From an uncultured Christensenellaceae bacterium (GTDB lineage Bacteria; Bacillota; Clostridia; Christensenellales; UBA3700): a stretch of DNA of 64,000 nucleotides. Below are positions 7,728-33,669 of this stretch, one piece after another. The position numbers and the translations under genes were made by a program. The notes under the pieces were generated by a model, which did not search any database, was not told the origin of the DNA, and was given only the letters and a program-made list of their open reading frames with translations. Position 1 is the first letter of the stretch; each line of letters starts with the position of its first letter. The stretch is taken from NCBI GenBank assembly GCA_910588545.1, contig CAJUOU010000002.1, positions 96,228-160,227 on the forward strand, given 5' to 3'.

Positions 7728-9929
7728 TTAATAGAACAACTCGATTCCTATGATTTTGTCAATCACATTCCTTACGATTTCCGCATCTGCAGTGGTTATT
7801 TCGCCTTTGTTTATTACCATACTCGCTAGCTTTTTCTCCACACTTAAACTTTCGTATAATGCGTTGTCACTTGCTATTTCTCTCAAGTAGGACACATCGC
7901 TTGCACTTATCCTTCCATCGCCGTTCACATCCCCCAATACGGATAGGTATATCGTTTCGCCGTTTGTCTGTATACACCATCCTGTTCCTATTGCCATCTC
8001 TTTGCCGTTATCTGCAATAGCACTGTTTATGCCACTATCTACTGCTCCGTTTTGATAAATTGTTTTGCCTTTACTATCCGATAGTTGTAAATTGTTTTTA
8101 TCAATACCCAAAGGTGCTAGGTTATTTACAAATTCGTTTACCGAAGTGTTTGGTTTTATATTTCCCAATACATATCTTTCCAACTCGCTGTCATTGTAAC
8201 CGTGTAATTTGTCATTTTCAGTATATGTTTTCCTATAGCCGTTATCCAAATAAACAAAATCATAAATTGATTTTTCTTTCAAATCAAAAATTACTTCCTC
8301 ATTTTTCAAAACAGCAACTTTTTTGCTGTCTTTGGTAAAAAAGTATTTTGACGGATTTTGATTTCCGTTGCCGTAATAAGTATACCCCAATGTGAAAGTT
8401 TTAAATAAATTATAGTTATCATTCAAATCAACTTGAATATGAGCATCTTTACCTTCGCTTGTAAGCAGACCTACTACTTCAACTTTAATATCCTGCGGCA
8501 AACACAAATCTGCATATTCTCCGTTGGATGAGTTGTCTTTTATAACAGTTGCTCCGCTGATTTGCAGCTTGCCTGCGCGAATATTTAGTCCGCCAGCATT
8601 TTCAGTTGCATGATTACCTGTTATAGTAGTATTTTTAATTGCTATGATATCTGCGATTGTAGAAATACCTGCGCCGTATTTTGCAGTGTTCCCCGTGATT
8701 TCGCAATTACTAATGCTCATTAGGGTCATATTATCATCGTTATAAATTCCACCGCCGGATTCTGCACTGCTATTATTTTGAAACACACAATTATTTAACG
8801 TACAAGACGAATTTTGATAATTAAAAATTGCACCTCCATAATTGTTTGCAACATTGCCTACAAAATTGCAGTTTGTAATCGTTGTAATTCCGTTGGAGAA
8901 AATGCCTGCACCGCTCATCTCACTTTCATTTTTATAAAAAACACAATCGTTTATTGTAACTTTTGTATTTTCATGAAATACGCTCAATGCTCCGCCATTT
9001 AATTTTGATGTGTTATTGCTGAAAACAACATTGTTCATTTCAAAATTTATACTGCCTGCAGCCATAATAGCACCTGCTTCAGTAGAAGACTTGTTTCCTA
9101 TTATAATTGAATTGCTAATAGATGTATTGTTCGTACAATGAAATGCTGCACCGCTAGTTTTTGTAGCACAGTTATTCATAAATAAACCGCCATTCACGAT
9201 AAGTTCTCCTGCAGCACAAATCGCACCGCCGGCTGGAGCATAAATATTATCAATTATCATACCACCATTAAATGTCAATTTTGCATTAGATTGAATATAA
9301 ATACCACCGCCTGTATCCATACATGCTCCACCTGTGATTTTACCAAAAGGCAAAGCTCTTAAAGCATTTATTTGAGTTGCTAATGGTTTGTCTTTATTTT
9401 CCTCGTAAGTATTAAACATTAACTCACTGTCGTATTTACTATCTATGATTGTCAAAGTACCTCCATTTAAAACTGTAAAAATAGACCCATAGCTCATTTT
9501 TGTAGTTTGTTTTTTATCAAGCGTATGTCCGTTTAAATCAAATATAATTGTTGCGCCATGTGGCACTGTTATAGAGCCACTGCCATTATAAAAGCCCTTA
9601 CCTACACCAAAAAAATAAGTATCTTCATGTGCAACCCAATCACTGTCAAGCAATACTTTTATTTCTTTGTTATTACCATCAAAGCTTTTTTGTATGGCAC
9701 CACTCCATAAAGCAGCTTTTTCATCTGTTGTACCTGTTAAAATAACATCAGGTGTATAGCCAACATCGGTAGCTTTTTCACTATCTACTATCTCTCCACT
9801 GCTTTGTGTTTTTAAAGTTTCGGTTTGTAAAGCAATGTTTGTAGATGCAAACAAACATCCTACAACTAAAAGACAAGAAATTACTAATACAAAAAATATT
9901 ATTCCAACTTTTTTAATAATCTTTGCCAT
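7728..9929 (-). CDS. secreted surface protein with polymorphic-membrane-protein (Pmp) type beta-helix repeats and a C-terminal dockerin-like module
   Basis: N-terminal signal peptide. Many GGAI/GGAL/SGAG plus FxxN-type repeats (NNYGGAIFNY, LNGGALSVF, ESGGGIYN). C-terminus GDVNGDGRISASDVSYLREIAS matches the dockerin Ca-binding repeat; the second repeat is degenerate. GGAGG SD upstream of the ATG. Confidence 0.8.
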   Translation of the reverse strand: MAKIIKKVGIIFFVLVISCLLVVGCLFASTNIALQTETLKTQSSGEIVDSEKATDVGYTPDVILTGTTDEKAALWSGAIQKSFDGNNKEIKVLLDSDWVAHEDTYFFGVGKGFYNGSGSITVPHGATIIFDLNGHTLDKKQTTKMSYGSIFTVLNGGTLTIIDSKYDSELMFNTYEENKDKPLATQINALRALPFGKITGGACMDTGGGIYIQSNAKLTFNGGMIIDNIYAPAGGAICAAGELIVNGGLFMNNCATKTSGAAFHCTNNTSISNSIIIGNKSSTEAGAIMAAGSINFEMNNVVFSNNTSKLNGGALSVFHENTKVTINDCVFYKNESEMSGAGIFSNGITTITNCNFVGNVANNYGGAIFNYQNSSCTLNNCVFQNNSSAESGGGIYNDDNMTLMSISNCEITGNTAKYGAGISTIADIIAIKNTTITGNHATENAGGLNIRAGKLQISGATVIKDNSSNGEYADLCLPQDIKVEVVGLLTSEGKDAHIQVDLNDNYNLFKTFTLGYTYYGNGNQNPSKYFFTKDSKKVAVLKNEEVIFDLKEKSIYDFVYLDNGYRKTYTENDKLHGYNDSELERYVLGNIKPNTSVNEFVNNLAPLGIDKNNLQLSDSKGKTIYQNGAVDSGINSAIADNGKEMAIGTGWCIQTNGETIYLSVLGDVNGDGRISASDVSYLREIASDNALYESLSVEKKLASMVINKGEITTADAEIVRNVIDKIIGIELFY

Positions 9930-9951
9930 AATAAAACCTCCGTTTTTATCT

Positions 9952-9978
9952 TACATAGAATAAGTATATCTATGTACA
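9952..9978. repeat. left inverted repeat of inverton 1
   Basis: TACATAGAATAAGTATATCTATGTACA. Its reverse complement matches 10100-10126 at 26/27 positions. Contains an internal dyad ACATAGA-N9-TCTATGT. Confidence 0.9.
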
Positions 9979-10057
9979 AAATCGCGATTTTTCGGAAAAG
10001 TTTTTTAAAGTTTTTGTAGCTTTTTTGTAAAGCTATTACAAAATGTTTAATTAAATG

Positions 10058-10087
10058 TTGACAAAAGTTTACTTTTGACCCTATAAT
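10058..10087 (+). promoter_or_regulatory. sigma-A type promoter inside inverton 1
   Basis: TTGACA (10058-10063), 18-nt spacer, TATAAT (10082-10087). Confidence 0.8.
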
Positions 10088-10099
10088 ATACATATAATA

Positions 10100-10126
10100 T
10101 GTACATAGATATACTTATTCCATGTA
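10100..10126. repeat. right inverted repeat of inverton 1
   Basis: TGTACATAGATATACTTATTCCATGTA, the partner of 9952-9978. Confidence 0.9.
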
Positions 10127-10140
10127 CCCAAACTTTACAT

Positions 10141-10233
10141 TAATGGCAAATTTTCAACCCCAATAGTCCCGATTTTTGATAGGATTATTGCAGTGAACGA
10201 TACTTTTTGCCAACTTTAAACTTTACACAAAAA
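10141..10233 (+). other. conserved non-coding module, copy 1 (paralog of 14231-14319)
   Basis: The 40-nt core CCGATTTTTGATAGGATTATTGCAGTGAACGATACTTTTT matches copy 2 at 35/40 positions, at the same distance (~42 nt) from the right IR. Also shares the AAACTTTACA(C/T)AAAAA motif. Confidence 0.7.
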
Positions 10234-10236
10234 GTA

Positions 10237-10274
10237 ACACCCCAAAACACAATGTTTCGGGGTGTATTTTATTT
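10237..10274 (+). terminator. intrinsic terminator ending the OFF-state transcript of inverton 1
   Basis: ACACCCCAAA / TTT(C)GGGGTGT stem followed by ATTTTATTT on the plus strand. Confidence 0.6.
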
Positions 10275-10430
10275 GTATGGCGTATTTAAAATTGTATAAT
10301 TTTAAGAAATTTTACGGCTAAAAAATGTCTATATTAATTTATATTACTACTATCCTTTTCAATTTTTATTTATATATTCTATTTGATAAACAAGTGCAAT
10401 TTTTAATTAAACATATAATTTATAGCAAGC

Positions 10431-10460
10431 AAAAAAGCCATTCTATTGAATGGCTTTTTT
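10431..10460 (-). terminator. bidirectional intrinsic terminator after the 1154-aa adhesin gene
   Basis: GCCATTC/GAATGGC stem flanked by A6 and T6 runs. Confidence 0.7.
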
Positions 10461-10523
10461 AATTAGTTATGCTTTTTACCTTTTTGTTTTTTAGTGTTTG
10501 TTTGCGTTTCGTTTTGGTTGTTT

Positions 10524-13500
10524 TTATTTACGCCTTTTCTTTTTATTCAATTTGCTATTAGGCTTGCTATCTTCATCAATTTTATCAGTGTCCACACCAT
10601 CAGCCGGCGTTATTTGATTTTGTAGCTTTTTAACCTTTTTTGCTTCGCTTTCTTTTAATGCGTAAAATAATATTCTTTCTTGCGGAGCTTCCAACACACT
10701 CAAGTTCAAAACATCATTTTCCTTTATTACAAATGTCCAATCTTTGTAACCTACCTTGTAGTTATTTACTATCGTTCCTCTTACATTTACTACTTCCTTT
10801 GGTTTTATATCCTCGGTATTGGTATTTGTCGCTCCGTTGTTTTCGCTTGCTGCTTGTTGGTTGTTTGCGGCATACTGTGCATAAGGTATTGCTTGTTGTG
10901 GAGTATTTTTATTTTTCTTTACTACTATCAATATTATTATCAACAACAATATAAATATTATCATAAAGATAAATATTGCTATTAATATCCACCACATATA
11001 CGGAGGCATATTTTTTAGTGTTTCTATTACACTATTCATTCCGCTATCCGTATTACCATTACTTCCACCATTCGGTTTGCCGTCAGTTCCGTTGTTATCG
11101 TCCTCGCCGTCGCCACCACTTGGGTTAGGGTTTACCTCTGTTTTAAAGCTGTATGTTTCCGTCTCGTCAACTAGCTCTCCGTTGTATTTTAAAAACACAC
11201 TGCCCTTATACTCATTTTTTACTTTCAAGGAGATTTGGTAATTTGTATCATACTTTAGCGTTGCAGTTGGCAATATTACATTGCCTATTATCTGCCCGTC
11301 TTTTACTTGGTATATTTCGTAATCAAAATACTTTTCTATCTCACTTTTTTCGTCAGATAATAGCGTTGGTCGTTTGTTTCCCGTTCCGTTTTGCCATCCG
11401 CTTATCTCAAACTCCAGCGTTTGTATATCCAAAGTTATTGTATATGTCGTGTTATCTCTATCCTCCCACACTACATTGTCTACTTCTCCGCCATTTGCTG
11501 TGTTTACTCCGTTTTTAAACGCTATTTGTATGCTATACTTTCCTGCTTTTGTAAACTTGTAGTTTTCGTCTACTACATTGCCGTCTACTGTTATTTCAAA
11601 GTAGCTCTTCCAATTTGTCGGCATATTGGCTACAGCACTTAACCCAAAGCCTTCTGCATCAAATATGTTTACTTGGTCTGCTTTTGGCTTTCTTATCTTT
11701 AAGCTTTCTATCTCATAATCAAAGGTATCTTCTCCTACTATCATAAAGTCGTCCAAACCACTTTGCAATCCTACCAACACTTTATATCTTCCTACATTTG
11801 TCGGTGCTCCGCTCAGTGGCGTACCGTCTGCTGTAGTGTAGCTTATTACCAAGTTACTTGCTGTCAATCCTCCGCCTGCTACATTTAGCTCTACAGCTTG
11901 TGACAAACCATTGTATGTAAACTTATTATTCTTTAAGCTTACCTCTACTTTATTTATTACCGACCCTGTTTGGAATACTTCCGATACTGAGTTTTCCTCA
12001 TTTCCATCTACTACAAATATACAGTTAGTGTTGTTAAATCCTATTGTATTTGTCGTAAATATTGCTTGTATATAATATGACTTTATTTCACTTATATCAT
12101 TTTCTGCAAATATTTGCTCTAATGTTACTTCATCAGTCAAATCACTCTTTCTAAAATACTTGTATTCTATTGCATTAGCTAAGTTTTCCGCTACTTGTAA
12201 TCTTGGTATTGGTAGCGTTATATCCCCTATTGTCACATTCTTTTTTGTCCATGATACCGCTACTTTCTTTTTGGTTATCTTCCAATTATGCTTTAGTTGT
12301 GGTATATTTGCTAGTTCCGCACTCGTATATGTTTTGTAGTTAGGGTCACTGCCTGTAAAATCAATTACACTTGCGATATAATCTCCTACTGCGGACTTAG
12401 CATTATTGTCATACACTGCTGTTAAAAAGGACGGTAGTCCAGAGGCTATCTCTACCTTTTGGTTTTGACCATTATATTCAAACTCGCTTTGACTCCACGT
12501 GACTTTGCTAAAATCTATTTCTGCCTTGTTTATGGTTATTTTTATCCATCGGACTGTATCGCTTTCCAAATGGTCGCTATCTGTGGTATCCGCAGTTCCT
12601 CTAAATCTTGGTTTTCTAAAATCTATTACTTCCTGTTTTTCGGTTTCCGTCCAACCGTATTTTAAAGCATCTTGCTCTACCAATGCAATTATTTTATTTG
12701 TCCAACTCTCTTTTATCTCTACCTTTACCCAATACTCTCCTGCGTTTTCGAATGCTTTAGTACTGTCGGGATAAGCAAGTTGAATAAACTCGTTATCTGA
12801 CTCATACAAATTTTTGTCATACCAAGCAGTATTGTTGTTTGTCTTTACAATTTCACTTAATGTTTGTGCTGTTGCATTATATGTTGTCTCCAAATCTTGG
12901 GGATTTTGCACTCCGTTTTCCAAGCCTCTTAGTATTTCGCTTAAATTTACATGTATTGCAGGGCGGACACCTCGCTCATTTGTTATACCCACATTAATCC
13001 ATCTACTAGCATCTGTACAAGTGGAATCAATATCGGAAAAAGCATATCCCCAACTATAATTATTATGATGAGCAGAACGTGTCCATGCTGTAGTAATCCC
13101 TTTTGATGCTATTTGCTCAGGCGACAATTTCCATCCAGATTCTACCAAAGTTCCATTGGAATAGTTTCCGCCAATTTCATAGACACTAGGTATCCAAATA
13201 TAGTCTTTACCCCAGTCGCTATATTTAATACCATCTACTGCATAATCGACTTCATACCCCCCGCCTGTATTAAATTGAGGTTTCCAATCAGGATAGTTGC
13301 TGTTTAGCGCATCATTTCCATAATCATAGGTACTAAACCCAAGTCTCATTGATTGTAGTTGTTGGTATTTAATATACTGCGGCTGAACTAAATATTTTGT
13401 AGCAAAATCGCCTTCGATAAATTGAGACATTTCGTTACTTGACAAAAGAGTATTTCTCAAAGTGCTGCTACTGTACATATTATTACCTTTCGATGCAGAA

Positions 13501-13988
13501 CCGTTTGTATAGAACTTGGACAATTTATACGAATCTGCTAAATATAAAGTTACAACAACATCTTCTTTGGAATAAAAATTTATATCGGTTAAAGTTACAG
13601 ATGTAACTATCCATTGATATCCACCGAGAGTAACAACTAAACCTGTTTCAGAACCAACTTGCGTATTTATAGTAGTAGCATTAACTAAATAAGTTGTTGT
13701 ATCCATATCAGGATTAATTTTATATACATGTTTTTTTACATAATCAGTCGGATTTTCTTTATTAAATAATTTTTCTTTCAAATTTAAAATTGCAAAATTA
13801 TTAAAAGACTTATTAACATTATCATATAATTCAGCACCATTCGCAACTTGAATAGCAGAGCTTGGATTTGATAAAGCCAATGCCTGTTTTGGAAAAATAA
13901 AAATACTTGCAATAAGACTACTAAATAGTACTATCATAAATGTTAACATTACTATAAATAGATACGATTTTTTTATGGTTTTCTTCAT
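10524..13988 (-). CDS. large type-I membrane surface protein/adhesin with DUF6273-like N-terminal domain, MBG-type Ig-like repeats, one C-terminal TM helix and a ~150-aa cytoplasmic tail
   Basis: Signal peptide. GVRPAIHVNL motif (DUF6273-like). MBG-like repeats (FEYNGQNQKVEI...VGDYIASV; FTYNGLSQAVEL...VGRYKVLV). G/N/D-rich linker. TM helix MWWILIAIFIFMIIFILLLIIILIVV followed by KKNKN and a basic tail ending KKKRRK. Confidence 0.75.
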   Translation of the reverse strand: MKKTIKKSYLFIVMLTFMIVLFSSLIASIFIFPKQALALSNPSSAIQVANGAELYDNVNKSFNNFAILNLKEKLFNKENPTDYVKKHVYKINPDMDTTTYLVNATTINTQVGSETGLVVTLGGYQWIVTSVTLTDINFYSKEDVVVTLYLADSYKLSKFYTNGSASKGNNMYSSSTLRNTLLSSNEMSQFIEGDFATKYLVQPQYIKYQQLQSMRLGFSTYDYGNDALNSNYPDWKPQFNTGGGYEVDYAVDGIKYSDWGKDYIWIPSVYEIGGNYSNGTLVESGWKLSPEQIASKGITTAWTRSAHHNNYSWGYAFSDIDSTCTDASRWINVGITNERGVRPAIHVNLSEILRGLENGVQNPQDLETTYNATAQTLSEIVKTNNNTAWYDKNLYESDNEFIQLAYPDSTKAFENAGEYWVKVEIKESWTNKIIALVEQDALKYGWTETEKQEVIDFRKPRFRGTADTTDSDHLESDTVRWIKITINKAEIDFSKVTWSQSEFEYNGQNQKVEIASGLPSFLTAVYDNNAKSAVGDYIASVIDFTGSDPNYKTYTSAELANIPQLKHNWKITKKKVAVSWTKKNVTIGDITLPIPRLQVAENLANAIEYKYFRKSDLTDEVTLEQIFAENDISEIKSYYIQAIFTTNTIGFNNTNCIFVVDGNEENSVSEVFQTGSVINKVEVSLKNNKFTYNGLSQAVELNVAGGGLTASNLVISYTTADGTPLSGAPTNVGRYKVLVGLQSGLDDFMIVGEDTFDYEIESLKIRKPKADQVNIFDAEGFGLSAVANMPTNWKSYFEITVDGNVVDENYKFTKAGKYSIQIAFKNGVNTANGGEVDNVVWEDRDNTTYTITLDIQTLEFEISGWQNGTGNKRPTLLSDEKSEIEKYFDYEIYQVKDGQIIGNVILPTATLKYDTNYQISLKVKNEYKGSVFLKYNGELVDETETYSFKTEVNPNPSGGDGEDDNNGTDGKPNGGSNGNTDSGMNSVIETLKNMPPYMWWILIAIFIFMIIFILLLIIILIVVKKNKNTPQQAIPYAQYAANNQQAASENNGATNTNTEDIKPKEVVNVRGTIVNNYKVGYKDWTFVIKENDVLNLSVLEAPQERILFYALKESEAKKVKKLQNQITPADGVDTDKIDEDSKPNSKLNKKKRRK

Positions 13989-14033
13989 TTTTATTTTCTC
14001 CTAATAGTACACTTTATATCAAATGAAACATTT

Positions 14034-14061
14034 GTACATAGAATATATATAATCTATGTAC
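14034..14061. repeat. left inverted repeat of inverton 2
   Basis: GTACATAGAATATATATAATCTATGTAC. Its reverse complement is identical (28/28) to 14185-14212. Internal dyad ACATAGA-N10-TCTATGT. Confidence 0.95.
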
Positions 14062-14142
14062 ATTTAGGAGCATTTTTCAAGCAATAAAATTAAAGTTTTG
14101 GTATAAATTAGTTAAAGTTCTTACAAAATGATTAGTTTAATA

Positions 14143-14172
14143 TTGACATTACTTTACTTTTAATCTTATAAT
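14143..14172 (+). promoter_or_regulatory. sigma-A type promoter inside inverton 2
   Basis: TTGACA (14143-14148), 18-nt spacer, TATAAT (14167-14172). Confidence 0.8.
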
Positions 14173-14184
14173 ATAACTGAAAAA

Positions 14185-14212
14185 GTACATAGATTATATA
14201 TATTCTATGTAC
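14185..14212. repeat. right inverted repeat of inverton 2
   Basis: GTACATAGATTATATATATTCTATGTAC, the perfect partner of 14034-14061. Confidence 0.95.
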
Positions 14213-14230
14213 TTTTTTTATCCTTTTATT

Positions 14231-14319
14231 TTATGGTAAATTGCAAGTTAATGCCGATTTTTGACGGCATTATTGCAGTGAACGACAATTTTTATATACT
14301 TCAAACTTTACATAAAAAA
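14231..14319 (+). other. conserved non-coding module, copy 2 (paralog of 10141-10233)
   Basis: Core CCGATTTTTGACGGCATTATTGCAGTGAACGACAATTTTT. Hairpin TAATGCCG-AUUUUUGA-CGGCATTA. Followed by CAAACTTTACATAAAAAA. Confidence 0.7.
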
Positions 14320-14320
14320 T

Positions 14321-14358
14321 AGCAACCCGAAAATTATATAAATAAGGTGCTGTTTTTT
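14321..14358 (+). terminator. possible weak terminator ending the OFF-state transcript of inverton 2
   Basis: AGCA(A)CC / GGTGCT short stem with a large loop, followed by GTTTTTT. Confidence 0.35.
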
Positions 14359-14464
14359 ATATTCGAAATTTTCGTTCAATGCAATTAGACATATTTAGGC
14401 TTAAAATTAAACCGAAAACTGCTTTTTAAGCAAAATATTTATACTACAGACGGCTTGGTTAAAT

Positions 14465-14650
14465 AAAAAAATAAGGCATATACCTTAAAGATATATGCCA
14501 AAAACGCAAATAGCGTGTAGTACCGCTCAACCGAAAGAAAACTATTTGAAAACCTCGTTCTTCGAGGTGGGTTAGCTACCTGATACCGCTGTCTTCCCCT
14601 GCCATAACCTAAAAGGTCGAGGGCGTGACATTGAGTACCACAACTCGCAG
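14465..14650 (-). ncRNA. candidate ~185-nt structured small RNA, class not identified (6S-like size and architecture)
   Basis: GC-rich island in an AT-rich intergenic region. TATAAT -10 box on the minus strand (14662-14657). Strong intrinsic terminator (GGCATATA/TATATGCC, 14475-14499, plus U-run). 5' segment GUGGUACUCAA can pair with 3' segment UUGAGCGGUACUAC. Internal hairpin ACCUCG-AAGAA-CGAGGU. Only a 19-codon ORF without an SD. Confidence 0.55.
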
Positions 14651-14808
14651 TCCCTTATTATAAATGTGGTTACAAAATGCAATTTCCTTTCAAATCTTGC
14701 AGTTATCCTACAACAATAGTATAACACATTTGAATGGTCATTACAATACCCTTTTTAAATTTTAATGTAAAAAATTTCCTAAATTAATGTTTAATAAACT
14801 TTACATTT

Positions 14809-14838
14809 AAAAAAGACCTAAAGTTTTACTTTAAGCCT
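14809..14838 (-). terminator. intrinsic terminator after the membrane protein operon
   Basis: 10-bp stem on the minus strand (AGGCUUAAAG/CUUUAGGUCU, with G-U pairs) followed by a U-run. Confidence 0.6.
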
Positions 14839-14853
14839 TTTAATTTATTTATA

Positions 14854-15789
14854 TCAATATACTTCTTTTACGGAATGCTTGCTGTCGATAACAGTTTCGG
14901 CATCTATATAGTATTTTCTTTCGTTCCTACGATAGTAAATTACCAACCCGATGCTTTGATAGAAAATGTTTAAAAAGCTTGTTGCCATAATAAAGCCGAT
15001 ACCAAAAGTAATAAGCCCGAATAACATAATAAACATATAAGACACAAAATTGATTGCAGTAAACAAGCCCCAATTTTTTATTATCAAATCTTTATTAGTC
15101 AATATTGCTTTTTGCAAGCTTTTAAAAATACCAAGTTCCTCATTTATATAAGTTGGTAACCACATTGCAAACACTGAACGTTTTAGTGCAATCAACACCA
15201 TAAAAATCGTTAGGCACAGCGTTAAAGCAAACACAACCGACAACTTACCAACACCCCAAAATGTCAAATAAATCAAACCACACAACAATAGCATGTATGG
15301 GATGTAAATCAATGTATCTACAAAGCTGTAAGCAACTGATTTTTTCAAATGTGCAATTAGGTTTGATGTAAAACCAAATTTGCTATTGCTGTTCATAAAA
15401 TTATTTAACACATCTGCAAGCGGATAATGACCGATTGTGATTAAAAACTTTCCTAAAAAAGTAAATGCAAACAATGCACAAACAGCACCGACTACATTGT
15501 TCCTGTTAGTTGCAAACACTTCCGAAATTTTTGCAAAGTCTTGTCCCAAAATACCAAATGCAGAATTTTGAACAGCTAAATCGCCACCGAACATAGAGCG
15601 GAATGCATCCATACAATGTTCAAAGAAATGCATATTTTGTACGCCTTGTATAATAGGTCGCATAATATAGTACATTGAACTTATAGAAACCGCAGCAAAT
15701 ATAAGCATAACAATAGTTAAATACAGCAAAAATTTATAAAACAAGGAAAACCTCGAAACGGTTATCGAAAAAGAATGTTTTGCTAACAT
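14854..15789 (-). CDS. polytopic integral membrane protein, function unknown
   Basis: Multiple hydrophobic helices and no recognisable motif. Abuts the upstream membrane protein gene with a 1-nt gap. Confidence 0.55.
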   Translation of the reverse strand: MLAKHSFSITVSRFSLFYKFLLYLTIVMLIFAAVSISSMYYIMRPIIQGVQNMHFFEHCMDAFRSMFGGDLAVQNSAFGILGQDFAKISEVFATNRNNVVGAVCALFAFTFLGKFLITIGHYPLADVLNNFMNSNSKFGFTSNLIAHLKKSVAYSFVDTLIYIPYMLLLCGLIYLTFWGVGKLSVVFALTLCLTIFMVLIALKRSVFAMWLPTYINEELGIFKSLQKAILTNKDLIIKNWGLFTAINFVSYMFIMLFGLITFGIGFIMATSFLNIFYQSIGLVIYYRRNERKYYIDAETVIDSKHSVKEVY

Positions 15790-26810: not shown

Positions 26811-26828
26811 TTAGTAAATTAAATTTTG

Positions 26829-27017
26829 ATGCTAATAGAGGAGCAATCAGCAATAGTATGTCCGCCAAATGGTATGCAATTACCGACAGGCAGAAAGGGT
26901 ATGATTGCCGAGGTCTTAATCATATTGCAGTGGTTAAGGTTGGGTATAAGGCTAAATCCTTATAACTGTCATCTTAGATGGAGTACTATTATGCTAGCGG
27001 TAAAAATGCTTTTTATT
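26829..27017 (+). promoter_or_regulatory. lysine riboswitch (L-box) aptamer
   Basis: L-box hallmarks AUAGAGGAGC...AGUA, GAAAGGG...UUGCCGAGG and AACUGUCA...UGGAGUACUAU. Lies upstream of lysine/DAP pathway genes. Confidence 0.85.
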
Positions 27018-27044: not shown

Positions 27045-27173
27045 AATATTCAAACATAAATTTCAAGCAAATTATATGTATAAGCAGTTTTACAAGCATG
27101 TTACAATCGGATAAATCAAAAAATTATTTATCCGTTATAAATTAGATTTTTATTTTTATTCATGGAGGCATAT

Positions 27174-31681: not shown

Positions 31682-31862
31682 ATATACATGTATAAATAGT
31701 TAAGCTTGCATATTTGCGTAAACAACAGTATTTTAATTAAAAATGAATTATTCTTATTATTTATCACTGTAATATGCTACTATATGATATGTTTTGAATA
31801 AAACAAATATGCTATTTTGATTATTTACATATTATTAAGAAAAATTAATCAAAGGAGTACTT

Positions 31863-32756
31863 ATGTCTTATTTTATAACCACAGATGCTACTTGTGATTT
31901 CCCACAGGAACTATTAAATAATTTTACAAACTTTAAAATCATTCCAATGGCATACACCATTGACGATATAGAATATGGTATTGATAAACAACTTTCGGGT
32001 AAGGAATTTTACGATAAGGTAAGAAACGGTGCCATGCCGACTACATCCCTTATAACTACTTACACAGCAACCGAGTTTTTCAGGCCTATCTTAGAGGACG
32101 GCAACGATATACTTCATATTTGTTTTTCTTCAAGCTTAAGCAGTACTTACCAAAGCGTTACTTTAGCTGTTGAAGAATTAAAAAAGGAATTTCCCAATAG
32201 GAAAATATTTATGCTAGACTCTAAGGCTGCATGCTCGGGCGAAGCTTTGCTTGTTTACTATTCACTTAAAGCACGCGATAATGGTATGGATATCGAAAGC
32301 AACTATAACGAAACAGTTGAAAGACGTGACCACATTTGCCATTACTTTACACCAAATGATTTATATCATTTAATGCGTGGCGGTAGAGTAAGTAAAACCG
32401 CTGCTGTTGCAGGTACTTTACTTCAAATTAAACCTATGCTTTATGCAAATGTTGACGGAAAACTTTCTACAATAGGTAAAGTTAAAGGCAGAAAAAAAGC
32501 TCTTTTGGGACTTGTTGAATATATGCAAGACAAAATGATAGCAGATAAAAACGAAATTATTTTTATTGCTCACGCTGACTGCTTGGAAGACGCGGAATTT
32601 GTTAAGGAAAAAATTATCGAAAAAACAGGGCTTACCAATATAATAATCGATTATATAGGTCCGGTTATCGGCTCACACACGGGACAAGGCACGGTAGCAT
32701 TATTCTTTGTCGGAAAAGACAAAATCGAAGCTACGGACGATTTATTAAAACAATAA
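31863..32756 (+). CDS. DegV-family fatty-acid-binding protein (paralog 1)
   Basis: DegV pattern ITTDATCDFP...PTTSLIT...HICFSSSLSSTYQS...GRVSKTAA. Confidence 0.88.
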   Translation: MSYFITTDATCDFPQELLNNFTNFKIIPMAYTIDDIEYGIDKQLSGKEFYDKVRNGAMPTTSLITTYTATEFFRPILEDGNDILHICFSSSLSSTYQSVTLAVEELKKEFPNRKIFMLDSKAACSGEALLVYYSLKARDNGMDIESNYNETVERRDHICHYFTPNDLYHLMRGGRVSKTAAVAGTLLQIKPMLYANVDGKLSTIGKVKGRKKALLGLVEYMQDKMIADKNEIIFIAHADCLEDAEFVKEKIIEKTGLTNIIIDYIGPVIGSHTGQGTVALFFVGKDKIEATDDLLKQ

Positions 32757-32778
32757 AAACTGACACTACGGAGGGATT

Positions 32779-33669
32779 ATGTCTTATTACATTACAACCG
32801 ACGCGACTTGCGATTTTCCACAAGAATGGTCGTATTTTGAAAATTTTAAAATTATACCAATGACATACACAATAGGAGATACCGAGTATGGTATTGATAA
32901 AAATCTTTCAGGTAAGGAATTTTTTGATGCGATAAGAAATGGTGCCATGCCAACAACTTCGCTTATTACAAGTTTTTTTGCCGAAGAATTTTTTAGACCG
33001 ATATTAAAAGCAGGAAACGATATATTGCATATCTGTTTTTCTTCGAGCTTAAGTAGCACTTATCAAAATGTACTTACCGCAGTTGAAGAATTGAAGCAAG
33101 AATTCCCCCAACGTAAATTTTACATGCTTGACTCAAAATGTGCAACAACAGGCGAAGGTTTGCTTGCCTATTATGCATTAAAAGCCCGTGACAACGGTAT
33201 GAGCATTGAAGATAATTACAATGAAACTCTTATTCGTCGCGATAAAATTTGTGTTTATTTTACTCCTGATGACCTTTTCCACTTGATGAGAGGTGGCAGA
33301 GTAAGCAAAACCGCTGCTATAGCTGGCTCATTGCTTAAAATCAAGCCTATGCTTTATGTAAATAAAGACGGCAAGCTTTCAACAATAGATAAAATAAAAG
33401 GTAGAAAAAAAGCTATTTTGGAGCTAATCGACCATTTGCAAGACAAAATTATTCTTGAAGAAAATGATGTAATAATTATTCTTCACGCAGACTGCCCTGA
33501 CGATGCAGAGTTTTTAAAGGAAAAAATAATCGAAAAAACCGGTATTACAAATATACTTACCAATTATGTAGGACCTATCATTGGCTCACACACAGGCGCA
33601 GGCACAATAGCTTTAGGCTTTATTGGAAAAGACAAAATAGAGCCAAACGACGAATTGTTAGAAAAATAA
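32779..33669 (+). CDS. DegV-family fatty-acid-binding protein (paralog 2, tandem duplicate)
   Basis: Collinear with 31863-32756 and highly similar along the whole length (roughly two-thirds identical by eye). Confidence 0.88.
   Translation: MSYYITTDATCDFPQEWSYFENFKIIPMTYTIGDTEYGIDKNLSGKEFFDAIRNGAMPTTSLITSFFAEEFFRPILKAGNDILHICFSSSLSSTYQNVLTAVEELKQEFPQRKFYMLDSKCATTGEGLLAYYALKARDNGMSIEDNYNETLIRRDKICVYFTPDDLFHLMRGGRVSKTAAIAGSLLKIKPMLYVNKDGKLSTIDKIKGRKKAILELIDHLQDKIILEENDVIIILHADCPDDAEFLKEKIIEKTGITNILTNYVGPIIGSHTGAGTIALGFIGKDKIEPNDELLEK

Follow-up and report, generated by a model that had tools for sequence, protein, structure and literature searches.

Analysis of the 64,000-nt window, i.e. the whole stretch of DNA under study, revealed that positions 14213-14358 constitute the gene-distal arm of a multi-copy invertible-promoter cassette, which is also present in related species. 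Comparison of the available cassettes indicates that it is the primary sequence of three short blocks in this arm, together with their spacing, that is conserved, rather than an RNA hairpin. The first-pass annotation of this region had interpreted it as the second copy of an inverton-side module, lying on the side of the OFF-oriented promoter, closed by a terminator, and containing a plus-strand RNA hairpin maintained by compensatory change. Every part of this interpretation stood except the last, namely the hairpin maintained by compensation. The features of the two cassettes in the window, on which the following discussion is based, are:

7728..9929, minus strand: gene under inverton 1, coding for a surface protein of 733 aa, with Chlam_PMP repeats and, at its C-terminus, a dockerin-like region
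9952..10127, no strand assigned: inverton 1, with the left IR at 9952-9978 and the right IR at 10101-10127
10058-10087, plus strand: promoter P1 of inverton 1, a 12/12 consensus match in the OFF orientation
10128..10275, plus strand: copy 1 of the arm, delineated by repeat search, block matches and fold
10128-10168, 10169-10176, 10185-10190 and 10220-10232, plus strand: the parts of copy 1, i.e. the 41-nt spacer, block A, block B and block C, respectively
10237-10265, followed by a T-run, plus strand: predicted terminator stem-loop of copy 1, from fold and covariation
10524..13988, minus strand: gene under inverton 2, coding for a 1154-aa secreted or surface protein, from the list of open reading frames
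14034..14061, no strand assigned: left IR of inverton 2, GTACATAGAATATATATAATCTATGTAC, in itself a near-palindromic core site
14143..14172, plus strand: promoter P1 of inverton 2, TTGACA-18-TATAAT, a 12/12 match in the OFF orientation
14185..14212, no strand assigned: right IR of inverton 2, from repeat search and alignment
14213..14253, plus strand: 41-nt spacer of copy 2, fixed in length and free in sequence
14254..14261, plus strand: block A of copy 2, NCGATTTT, of which CGATTTT is invariant in 13 divergent cassettes
14262..14269, plus strand: 8-nt gap between blocks A and B of copy 2, TGACGGCA here and CGACACGA in other strains
14270..14275, plus strand: block B of copy 2, TTATTG, invariant in 13 divergent cassettes and part of the proposed 3' arm of the hairpin
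14305..14317, plus strand: block C of copy 2, ACTTTACATAAAA, the longest invariant block, which doubles as the A-tract before the terminator
14311..14362, plus strand: predicted intrinsic terminator of copy 2, folding into a bulged stem with a large loop and carrying a T-run
14366..14388, minus strand: partial inverted remnant of a second module, beginning CTAATTGCATTGAACGA, from pattern match and repeat search

A repeat search placed the arms of inverton 1 at 9952-9978 and 10100-10126 (27 nt, 96% complementarity) and those of inverton 2 at 14034-14065 and 14181-14212 (32 nt, 97% complementarity). Both invertons of the window contain a TTGACA-18-TATAAT promoter, recognized by its consensus match only, which agrees with the consensus at all 12 positions and is kept across lineages. 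As both promoters are directed away from their genes, which lie to the left on the minus strand, both switches are in the OFF state in the window. The placement of the module on the side read by the OFF-oriented promoter, as had been suggested earlier, is borne out by the fact that the promoter of each inverton lies on the plus strand and is directed away from the gene. The same IRs were recovered in all 65 cassettes, and the core site of the copy-2 type is an almost perfect palindrome with the centre TATATATA. On the gene side the start codon mostly lies 18-22 nt from the IR, as estimated by a crude search for the last CAT in the 65 cassettes. A Pfam scan of the 1154-aa protein under inverton 2 recovered no match. 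Judged by their sequences, these loci have the hallmarks of invertons, i.e. a short segment flanked by IRs, a promoter inside it, and the occurrence of both orientations in nature.

Inversion at these loci is real. The copy-2 locus, which is OFF in the window, has its segment reverse-complemented in strain L051; likewise, at another locus the segment of L063 is inverted with respect to those of L062 and L064, the latter two being OFF and the former ON. Among the cassettes of the MAG with the largest set of copies (see below) L017 is the sole one with its promoter directed toward the gene (ON), and over the 61 assembled cassettes 57 are OFF and 4 are ON. Several assemblies, including those of L052-L054, break at the inverton. 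In L048 the copy-2 inverton carries modules on both flanks, with the arm of another locus replacing the gene for the 1154-aa protein, an arrangement that is expected from recombination between two different switches.

Within the window the segments 10164-10247 and 14249-14332 form an ungapped direct repeat of 84 nt with 80% identity, confirming that 14213-14358 is a second copy of the inverton-adjacent module. The 40-nt core, which starts at 10169 in copy 1 and at 14254 in copy 2, shows 5 differences between the two, and reading of both copies reproduced the previously reported match of 35/40. The 17-mer ATTATTGCAGTGAACGA occurs at exactly 2 sites in the window and, when up to 3 mismatches are permitted, at 4 sites as against 0.44 expected; the arm repeat is far above chance level. 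The distance of the module from the right IR, earlier put at about 42 nt, was measured as exactly 41 nt to CCGATTTT in both copies. Similarly, the motif that had been described as following the hairpin in both copies, AAACTTTACAYAAAAA, was recovered at 10218 and 14303. The inverted remnant at 14366..14388 pairs as a 20-nt inverted repeat with 14272-14291, i.e. with a part of copy 2 itself.

When one genome per species was scanned with a part of the 40-nt core as the pattern, about 28 copies of the cassette were recovered in a single MAG, that of the uncultured Clostridia CANSGN01, as well as cassette fragments in two other MAGs. A metagenome scan with a pattern that left the stem arms of the hairpin free added 18 loci, and a total of 65 distinct cassettes was collected. 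All copies in the MAG are versions of one cassette, which consists of the gene start, an IR, the promoter segment, the second IR, a module of ~110 nt and a terminator, with the promoter-bearing invertible segment spanning ~120 bp. Surface-protein paralogues with 27-39% protein identity share a near-unchanged cassette of the form termed type 1, as judged by eye. The homologues of the 1154-aa protein grade in identity from 97% down to 40%, and each of those fetched is accompanied by an inverton of the copy-2 type and a recognisable module. For the neighbouring 311-aa protein alone, the index of the assembly collection lists 564 blocks. With respect to a link to phages, neither a blastn match in the phage collection nor a pattern match in viral contigs was found.

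The arm displays the same layout in 13 lineages: the right IR, 41 nt, block A, 8 nt, TTATTG, 28-29 nt, N(C/G)TTTACAYAAAA, and a hairpin with a T-run. The spacing from the IR to block A is 41 nt in 64 of the 65 distinct cassettes and the gap between blocks A and B is 8 nt in all 65 of them, with a variable sequence, while the third spacer, between blocks B and C, differs by 1 nt at most. The sequence of the 41-nt spacer itself shows only 29-66% identity between most lineages. Blocks A-C are invariant in two alignments of divergent cassettes (A2, with 9, and A3, with 13) and are intact in every copy of a third alignment (A1), which comprises 40 near-identical copies. Analysis of the helical phasing of the blocks with respect to the IR yielded nothing decisive. 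Two further similarities are mentioned as leads only. Blocks A and B, by reading, resemble a direct repeat (GATTTTTG versus GATTATTG or GTTTATTG, 12 bp apart), and TTTACA appears again 7 nt past the right IR in five lineages and, in the form TTACAAAAT, inside the invertible segment. The conservation of the type-1 cassettes, of which there are roughly 60 copies, could partly reflect gene conversion instead of selection.

Block A coincides with the inner end of the 5' arm of the hairpin that had been proposed and with a part of its loop. According to that proposal the arm is a structured cis-RNA element, in which a conserved plus-strand hairpin around the loop GAUUUUUGA is kept by compensation. 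The two copies in the window do form the hairpins described for them, with -9.5 kcal/mol (z = -2.45) for copy 1 and -17 kcal/mol (z = -5.76) for copy 2, and folds of their whole transcripts show an IR hairpin, a central hairpin and the terminator. The C-G to G-C difference that had been noted between the two copies is genuine and corresponds to pair 71/86 of the A1 alignment, where the proposed stem occupies columns 64-72 with 85-93; in addition L032 shows a C-G to A-U double change, and the variants of the 5' arm among type-1 copies are mostly wobble-compatible on the plus strand. However, compensatory maintenance fails on the very kind of change that had been named beforehand as refuting it, namely a switch of CGGC to CACG in the 3' arm with no change in the 5' arm. 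This allele destroys three central stem pairs and is common in other strains and species, being present at the same locus in L048, L052 and L053 and at related loci in L024, L059 and L060. In A1 the stem is 94.7% paired, but its 3' arm is without any variation; pair 71/86 is the only one with double changes, and these number 2 (G-C in copy 2 and A-U in L032) against 4 breaks, while pair 66/91 is broken in 8 of the 40 copies. The near-identical type-1 set shows a weak covariation, with 13 further pair types versus 9.7, a level attained by 2 of 500 shuffles.

In the divergent cassettes the pairing of the stem is at the shuffled level, with 59.4% of the cells in A3 pairing as against 59.3% in shuffles (280 of 500 being as high) and a single pair with a double change versus 0.4 expected. 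The in-register pairing in A2 is 61.6%, which 308 of 500 shuffles equalled or exceeded. RNAalifold predictions for the 9 and the 13 divergent cassettes contained the IR palindrome only, with no pairs in the module. When 15 variants were folded locally only the two from the window gave z < -2; the other 13 folded no better than shuffles (z from -1.6 to +0.9), with L066b yielding just -0.9 kcal/mol. Thus, the hairpin model is failed by non-compensatory substitutions and, as far as these alignments go, is largely refuted; a structured cis-RNA element of this kind appears very unlikely. Two other candidate structures were also rejected. A long-range GGCAA/UUGCC helix with a small GUG/CAC helix, predicted by RNAalifold for type 1, is missing from the consensus of the divergent cassettes, and an outer TTGCA/TTGCA stem seen in folds of the copy-2 type is absent in type 1, L065 and L066b. 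An Rfam search over 9900-14900 recovered no match for the arm at the gathering threshold or at E<=1. The same interval contains, elsewhere, an Rfam match to 6S RNA.

The terminator presents a different picture, since its stem covaries in A1, indicating that a real RNA structure is visible in these data, whereas the central hairpin bears no such mark. Double changes are observed in 5 of the 12 pairs of this stem (16 cells), and the covariation score of 0.088 compares with 0.049 for shuffled alignments (0 of 500 as high). Hence, the pattern of substitutions shows the terminator to be under structural selection. A hairpin with a T-run is found after block C in every lineage, the sequence of the stem differing from one lineage to another. 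For copy 1 the scan lists a terminator-like stem-loop at 10237-10265 on the minus strand, and the hairpin also folds on the plus strand, with a T-run after it. The earlier statement that the module closes with a terminator also held for copy 2, where it is predicted at about 14311-14362. As the A-run of block C mirrors the T-run past the hairpin, the terminator is potentially bidirectional.

The above observations provide some clues regarding the potential function of the arm. The reading that we tentatively prefer, and to which we accord slightly less than an even chance, is that the arm specifies an OFF-state RNA ended by the terminator and that the three blocks are candidate cis-acting protein-recognition sites. 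In the OFF state the promoter would face away from the gene and the right IR and the arm would be transcribed into an RNA of ~180 nt that stops at the terminator; given the promoter upstream and the terminator downstream, transcription of the arm is likely. The terminator would keep the strong OFF promoter from reading into neighbouring genes, and might also stop incoming transcription before the silent gene. Blocks A-C, in turn, could function as protein-recognition sites on the DNA, which is the least secure step of the scheme; they might be arm-type or accessory sites for a putative recombinase or for a partner protein that bends the DNA. Sites of this kind would distinguish one end of the switch from the other, and could thereby bias or constrain inversion. 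This cis-site reading is favoured because it is sequence and not structure that appears conserved, because the lengths are fixed with respect to the IR, and because dozens of copies keep the blocks. The intactness of the blocks at every copy would suit a role in cis at each locus better than a redundant product acting in trans. Furthermore, as the core of the copy-2 type is nearly palindromic, an asymmetry outside it could be useful against deletion of the promoter, a consideration based on the general behaviour of tyrosine recombinases at near-palindromic sites. A search of the window and of 68 loci detected neither a serine or tyrosine recombinase motif nor a tblastn match to XerD or Hin. 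The blocks are also contained within the RNA, and a sequence motif acting at the RNA level fits the same data.

The main rival of the cis-site reading is that the ~180-nt OFF-state transcript is a small RNA acting via the primary sequence of its invariant single-stranded blocks, which might serve to bind a protein or to base-pair with a target, either in trans or co-transcriptionally in cis. This would account for the presence of a consensus promoter directed into the arm and of a terminator, with a covarying stem, that closes it, for the location of block C directly 5' of the terminator, and for the combination of conserved blocks with a variable terminator stem, which is typical of small RNAs; moreover, RNAalifold predicts the blocks to be unpaired in the 13 divergent cassettes. 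However, about 27 redundant copies per genome would be expected to relax selection, yet the blocks are kept in all of them, and linkers in an unstructured RNA are not usually held to exact lengths, as the spacers here are. A complementary target was found neither in the window nor, by eye, in the ON leader, and Rfam offers no match. We therefore regard a small RNA of this type as unlikely, though well worth considering. It is distinctly less probable that only the spacer and the terminator matter and that the blocks are still present because the whole cassette was duplicated recently and underwent gene conversion. Type-1 copies are indeed near-identical over the entire cassette, including parts with no obvious role, and recombination between cassettes does occur, as the rearrangement in L048 illustrates. 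But the spacers have drifted to near-random identity between lineages while blocks A-C and the spacer lengths stayed fixed, and the conservation of the blocks persists even where the controlled proteins of the species share only 40-50% identity.

Two further alternatives concern signals that the arm might carry in its own right. The direct repeat formed by blocks A and B, with its 12-bp period, might bind a transcription factor, or a minus-strand promoter might fire toward the switch. The similarity of A and B was seen on reading the sequences, and in copy 1 the scan detected, on the minus strand, a promoter-like site that matches at 10/12 positions and carries a TG extension (TTGGCA-18-TGcAATAAT). 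Promoter-like matches are nevertheless at background (6 versus 5.5 expected), the -35 element is not kept in copy 2 or in other lineages, the M3 module and L062 lack the final T of the -10 element, and a minus-strand transcript would meet the strong P1 head-on; this alternative is accordingly highly improbable. As for a small protein encoded on either strand, the plus-strand frame quoted in the first-pass annotation does exist in copy 2, as an ORF of 29 codons with an ATG, and the PIFxxIIAVN frame shows some synonymous substitutions. Translation of the plus-strand frame for 9 variants, however, ruled out an ORF as the cause of the conservation, with no conserved start, an in-frame stop (in L059) and a change of frame at block C, which is invariant though the frame differs among lineages. 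The type-1 copies have no canonical start codon, a Shine-Dalgarno sequence before the ATG of copy 2 was not found by eye, and the minus-strand frame contains stops in L061 and L062 by hand translation, leaving the coding explanation with a negligible probability. The possibility that the arm is a decayed copy of the 5' end of the controlled gene, raised by the presence of ATGGCAAA on both sides, was rejected, as local alignment of the outward flanks scored within the shuffled range, with 178 of the 500 shuffles for copy 1 and 328 of the 500 for copy 2 reaching the observed score. A guide or bridge RNA was likewise rejected, as the variable parts of the arm do not track the centre of the IR; there is no guide-like co-variation because C2, M3, L059, L060 and L061 share one IR and yet differ in the 8-nt gap.

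The usual description of an invertible promoter comprises two inverted repeats and a promoter. In a large family from uncultured, prevalent gut Clostridia the arm represents a third conserved component, located on the side toward which the promoter is directed in the silent state of the gene. Should the blocks be accessory sites, they would provide a handle on how one recombinase keeps dozens of switches mostly OFF, and would explain how near-palindromic core sites avoid deletion of the promoter. If they act as RNA, silent loci would not be transcriptionally silent. Either role, if true, would add to invertible promoters a level of control that has not been described for them. In practical terms, the spacing signature (IR, 41 nt, CGATTTT, 8 nt, TTATTG, ~29 nt, TTTACAYAAAA) constitutes a precise probe with which to find and count such switches in metagenomes, and it also aids the design of binding and inversion experiments. 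More speculatively, across a surface-protein regulon of at least 28 loci the arms might serve as an array of accessory sites that sets the direction of inversion and keeps almost all of the loci OFF, or might give rise to a pool of 'OFF RNA' that reports the number of silent switches, a proposal that we consider possible but rather doubtful. In the literature, inverton-adjacent modules or OFF-side RNAs of this arrangement were not found described.

In its general mode of operation this family appears to be like the multi-promoter inversion regulon of Bacteroides, fimS of Escherichia coli, and the RecV switches of Clostridioides difficile. In Bacteroides fragilis invertible promoters of polysaccharide genes, dependent on Mpi, are found at many loci. 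The present family is similar in having many surface-structure loci per genome, each with a short invertible promoter and a shared IR, and most of them OFF; by this likeness, the many loci with a shared IR imply a single unlinked master recombinase. It differs in being from Clostridia, in having near-palindromic full-site IRs of 27-28 bp, in controlling single large secreted proteins, and in that each switch has a gene-distal arm with three blocks at fixed spacing and a terminator of its own. To our knowledge, no such arm has been described for the switches of Bacteroides. On the promoters of B. fragilis, PMC7366714 cites Jiang et al. 2019.

The fimS switch of E. coli, with its recombinases FimB and FimE, sites for IHF and Lrp, and orientational control (PMC9993118, PMC8777976), is likewise an invertible promoter segment, and one whose inversion depends on sequences and accessory sites in and beside the switch, with ends that are non-equivalent. 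However, fimS is a single 314-bp locus with 9-bp IRs and linked recombinase genes, whereas here there are dozens of loci, with no linked recombinase found in the window or at the 68 loci, and the conserved flank is restricted to the gene-distal side and ends in a terminator. The RecV switches of C. difficile, those of cwpV, flgB and cmrRST (PMC7446863, PMC8844915, PMC5914908), are similar in being clostridial phase-variation systems in which one unlinked tyrosine recombinase acts on several switches and in which termination is part of the ON/OFF logic. In the case of cwpV and flgB, though, the promoter lies outside the switch and intrinsic or Rho-dependent termination takes place in the leader of the OFF mRNA, while in the present family the switch itself contains the promoter, and a separate transcript in the OFF direction is predicted to end at the terminator.

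Accessory sequences are a recurrent feature of recombination sites, as exemplified by the arm sites of lambda att, the accessory regions of the Xer sites cer and psi, and the Fis-bound enhancer of Hin and Gin. As in those systems, conserved elements are placed here at set distances on one side of the crossover; there they govern direction or topology rather than catalysis. Unlike them, the blocks of the arm do not resemble sites for IHF, Fis, ArgR or PepA, and we know of no Fis in Firmicutes. What would be new in the family described here is a fixed arm, with its own terminator, added to an otherwise known type of invertible promoter.

Among the approximately 28 cassettes of one assembled genome (MAG CANSGN01 from an uncultured Clostridia, loci L003-L026), each composed of a gene start and a promoter segment between inverted repeats (IRs) followed by the conserved gene-distal arm, the promoter is directed toward the gene only in L017, whose gene has a differing leader (GGAGAGTATTATG):

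L017:2113-2450, strand not given, cassette with promoter facing the gene (MAG CANSGN01)

With the promoter of this cassette alone facing its gene, the assembled sequence suggests that members of the family are expressed roughly one at a time. Three independent assemblies (L052, L053 and L054) terminate at or inside the copy-2 inverton, which controls the 1154-aa gene, with contig ends near locus position 11600-11870; this is consistent with the assembly having been broken by mixed orientations or by repeat collapse. Alignment of the type-1 cassettes (the near-identical set) revealed two different invertible segments (e.g. L003 vs L011), one with the promoter element TATAAT and the other with TAAAAT, which also differ in their upstream sequence. 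The IRs and the arm are common to both variants, which are intermixed across the type-1 loci.

The copy-2-type IR (14034-14061 and 14185-14212) is approximately a perfect palindrome, formed by GTACATAGA, a 10-nt AT centre and TCTATGTAC, with each repeat mismatching its own reverse complement at a few central positions only. Given that the IRs are nearly equal to their own reverse complements, the core site has little intrinsic direction. Several loci appear to bear traces of rearrangements involving the switches, including one past the copy-2 terminator:

14366-14388, minus strand, partial inverted second module core (CTAATTGCATTGAACGA...), forming a 20-nt inverted repeat (90%) with 14272-14291

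This looks like a remnant of an earlier switch-switch rearrangement. In one strain (L048:11300-11905) the copy-2 inverton is flanked by modules on both sides, and other genes (IMPDH, GH3) are found in place of the 1154-aa gene. The second of these modules corresponds to the arm usually found next to the homologous gene in L058; this arrangement implies recombination of two different switches, i.e. a large chromosomal inversion. A module copy lacking an inverton (L042:786-975), in which homology begins abruptly at cccGATTTTTGA, corresponding to block A, is probably a rearrangement relic.

Comparison of DNA repeats in the window also recovered a tandem duplication (31840-33669, plus strand) with 68-79% DNA identity between two neighboring genes, the likeness extending over their ribosome-binding regions:

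31863-32756, plus strand, paralogous gene, 297 aa
32779-33669, plus strand, paralogous gene, 296 aa

Searches against Rfam pointed to two non-coding RNAs:

26828-26996, plus strand, lysine riboswitch (RF00168, 88.4 bits)
14516-14708, minus strand, likely 6S RNA gene (RF00013)

The riboswitch lies upstream of plus-strand genes beginning at 27162. The candidate 6S RNA gene is immediately to the right of the copy-2 arm and is followed by a terminator-like downstream hairpin (14499-14475). Its match (40 bits, E = 1e-5) falls below the gathering score of 46.4 but covers the full RF00013 model.
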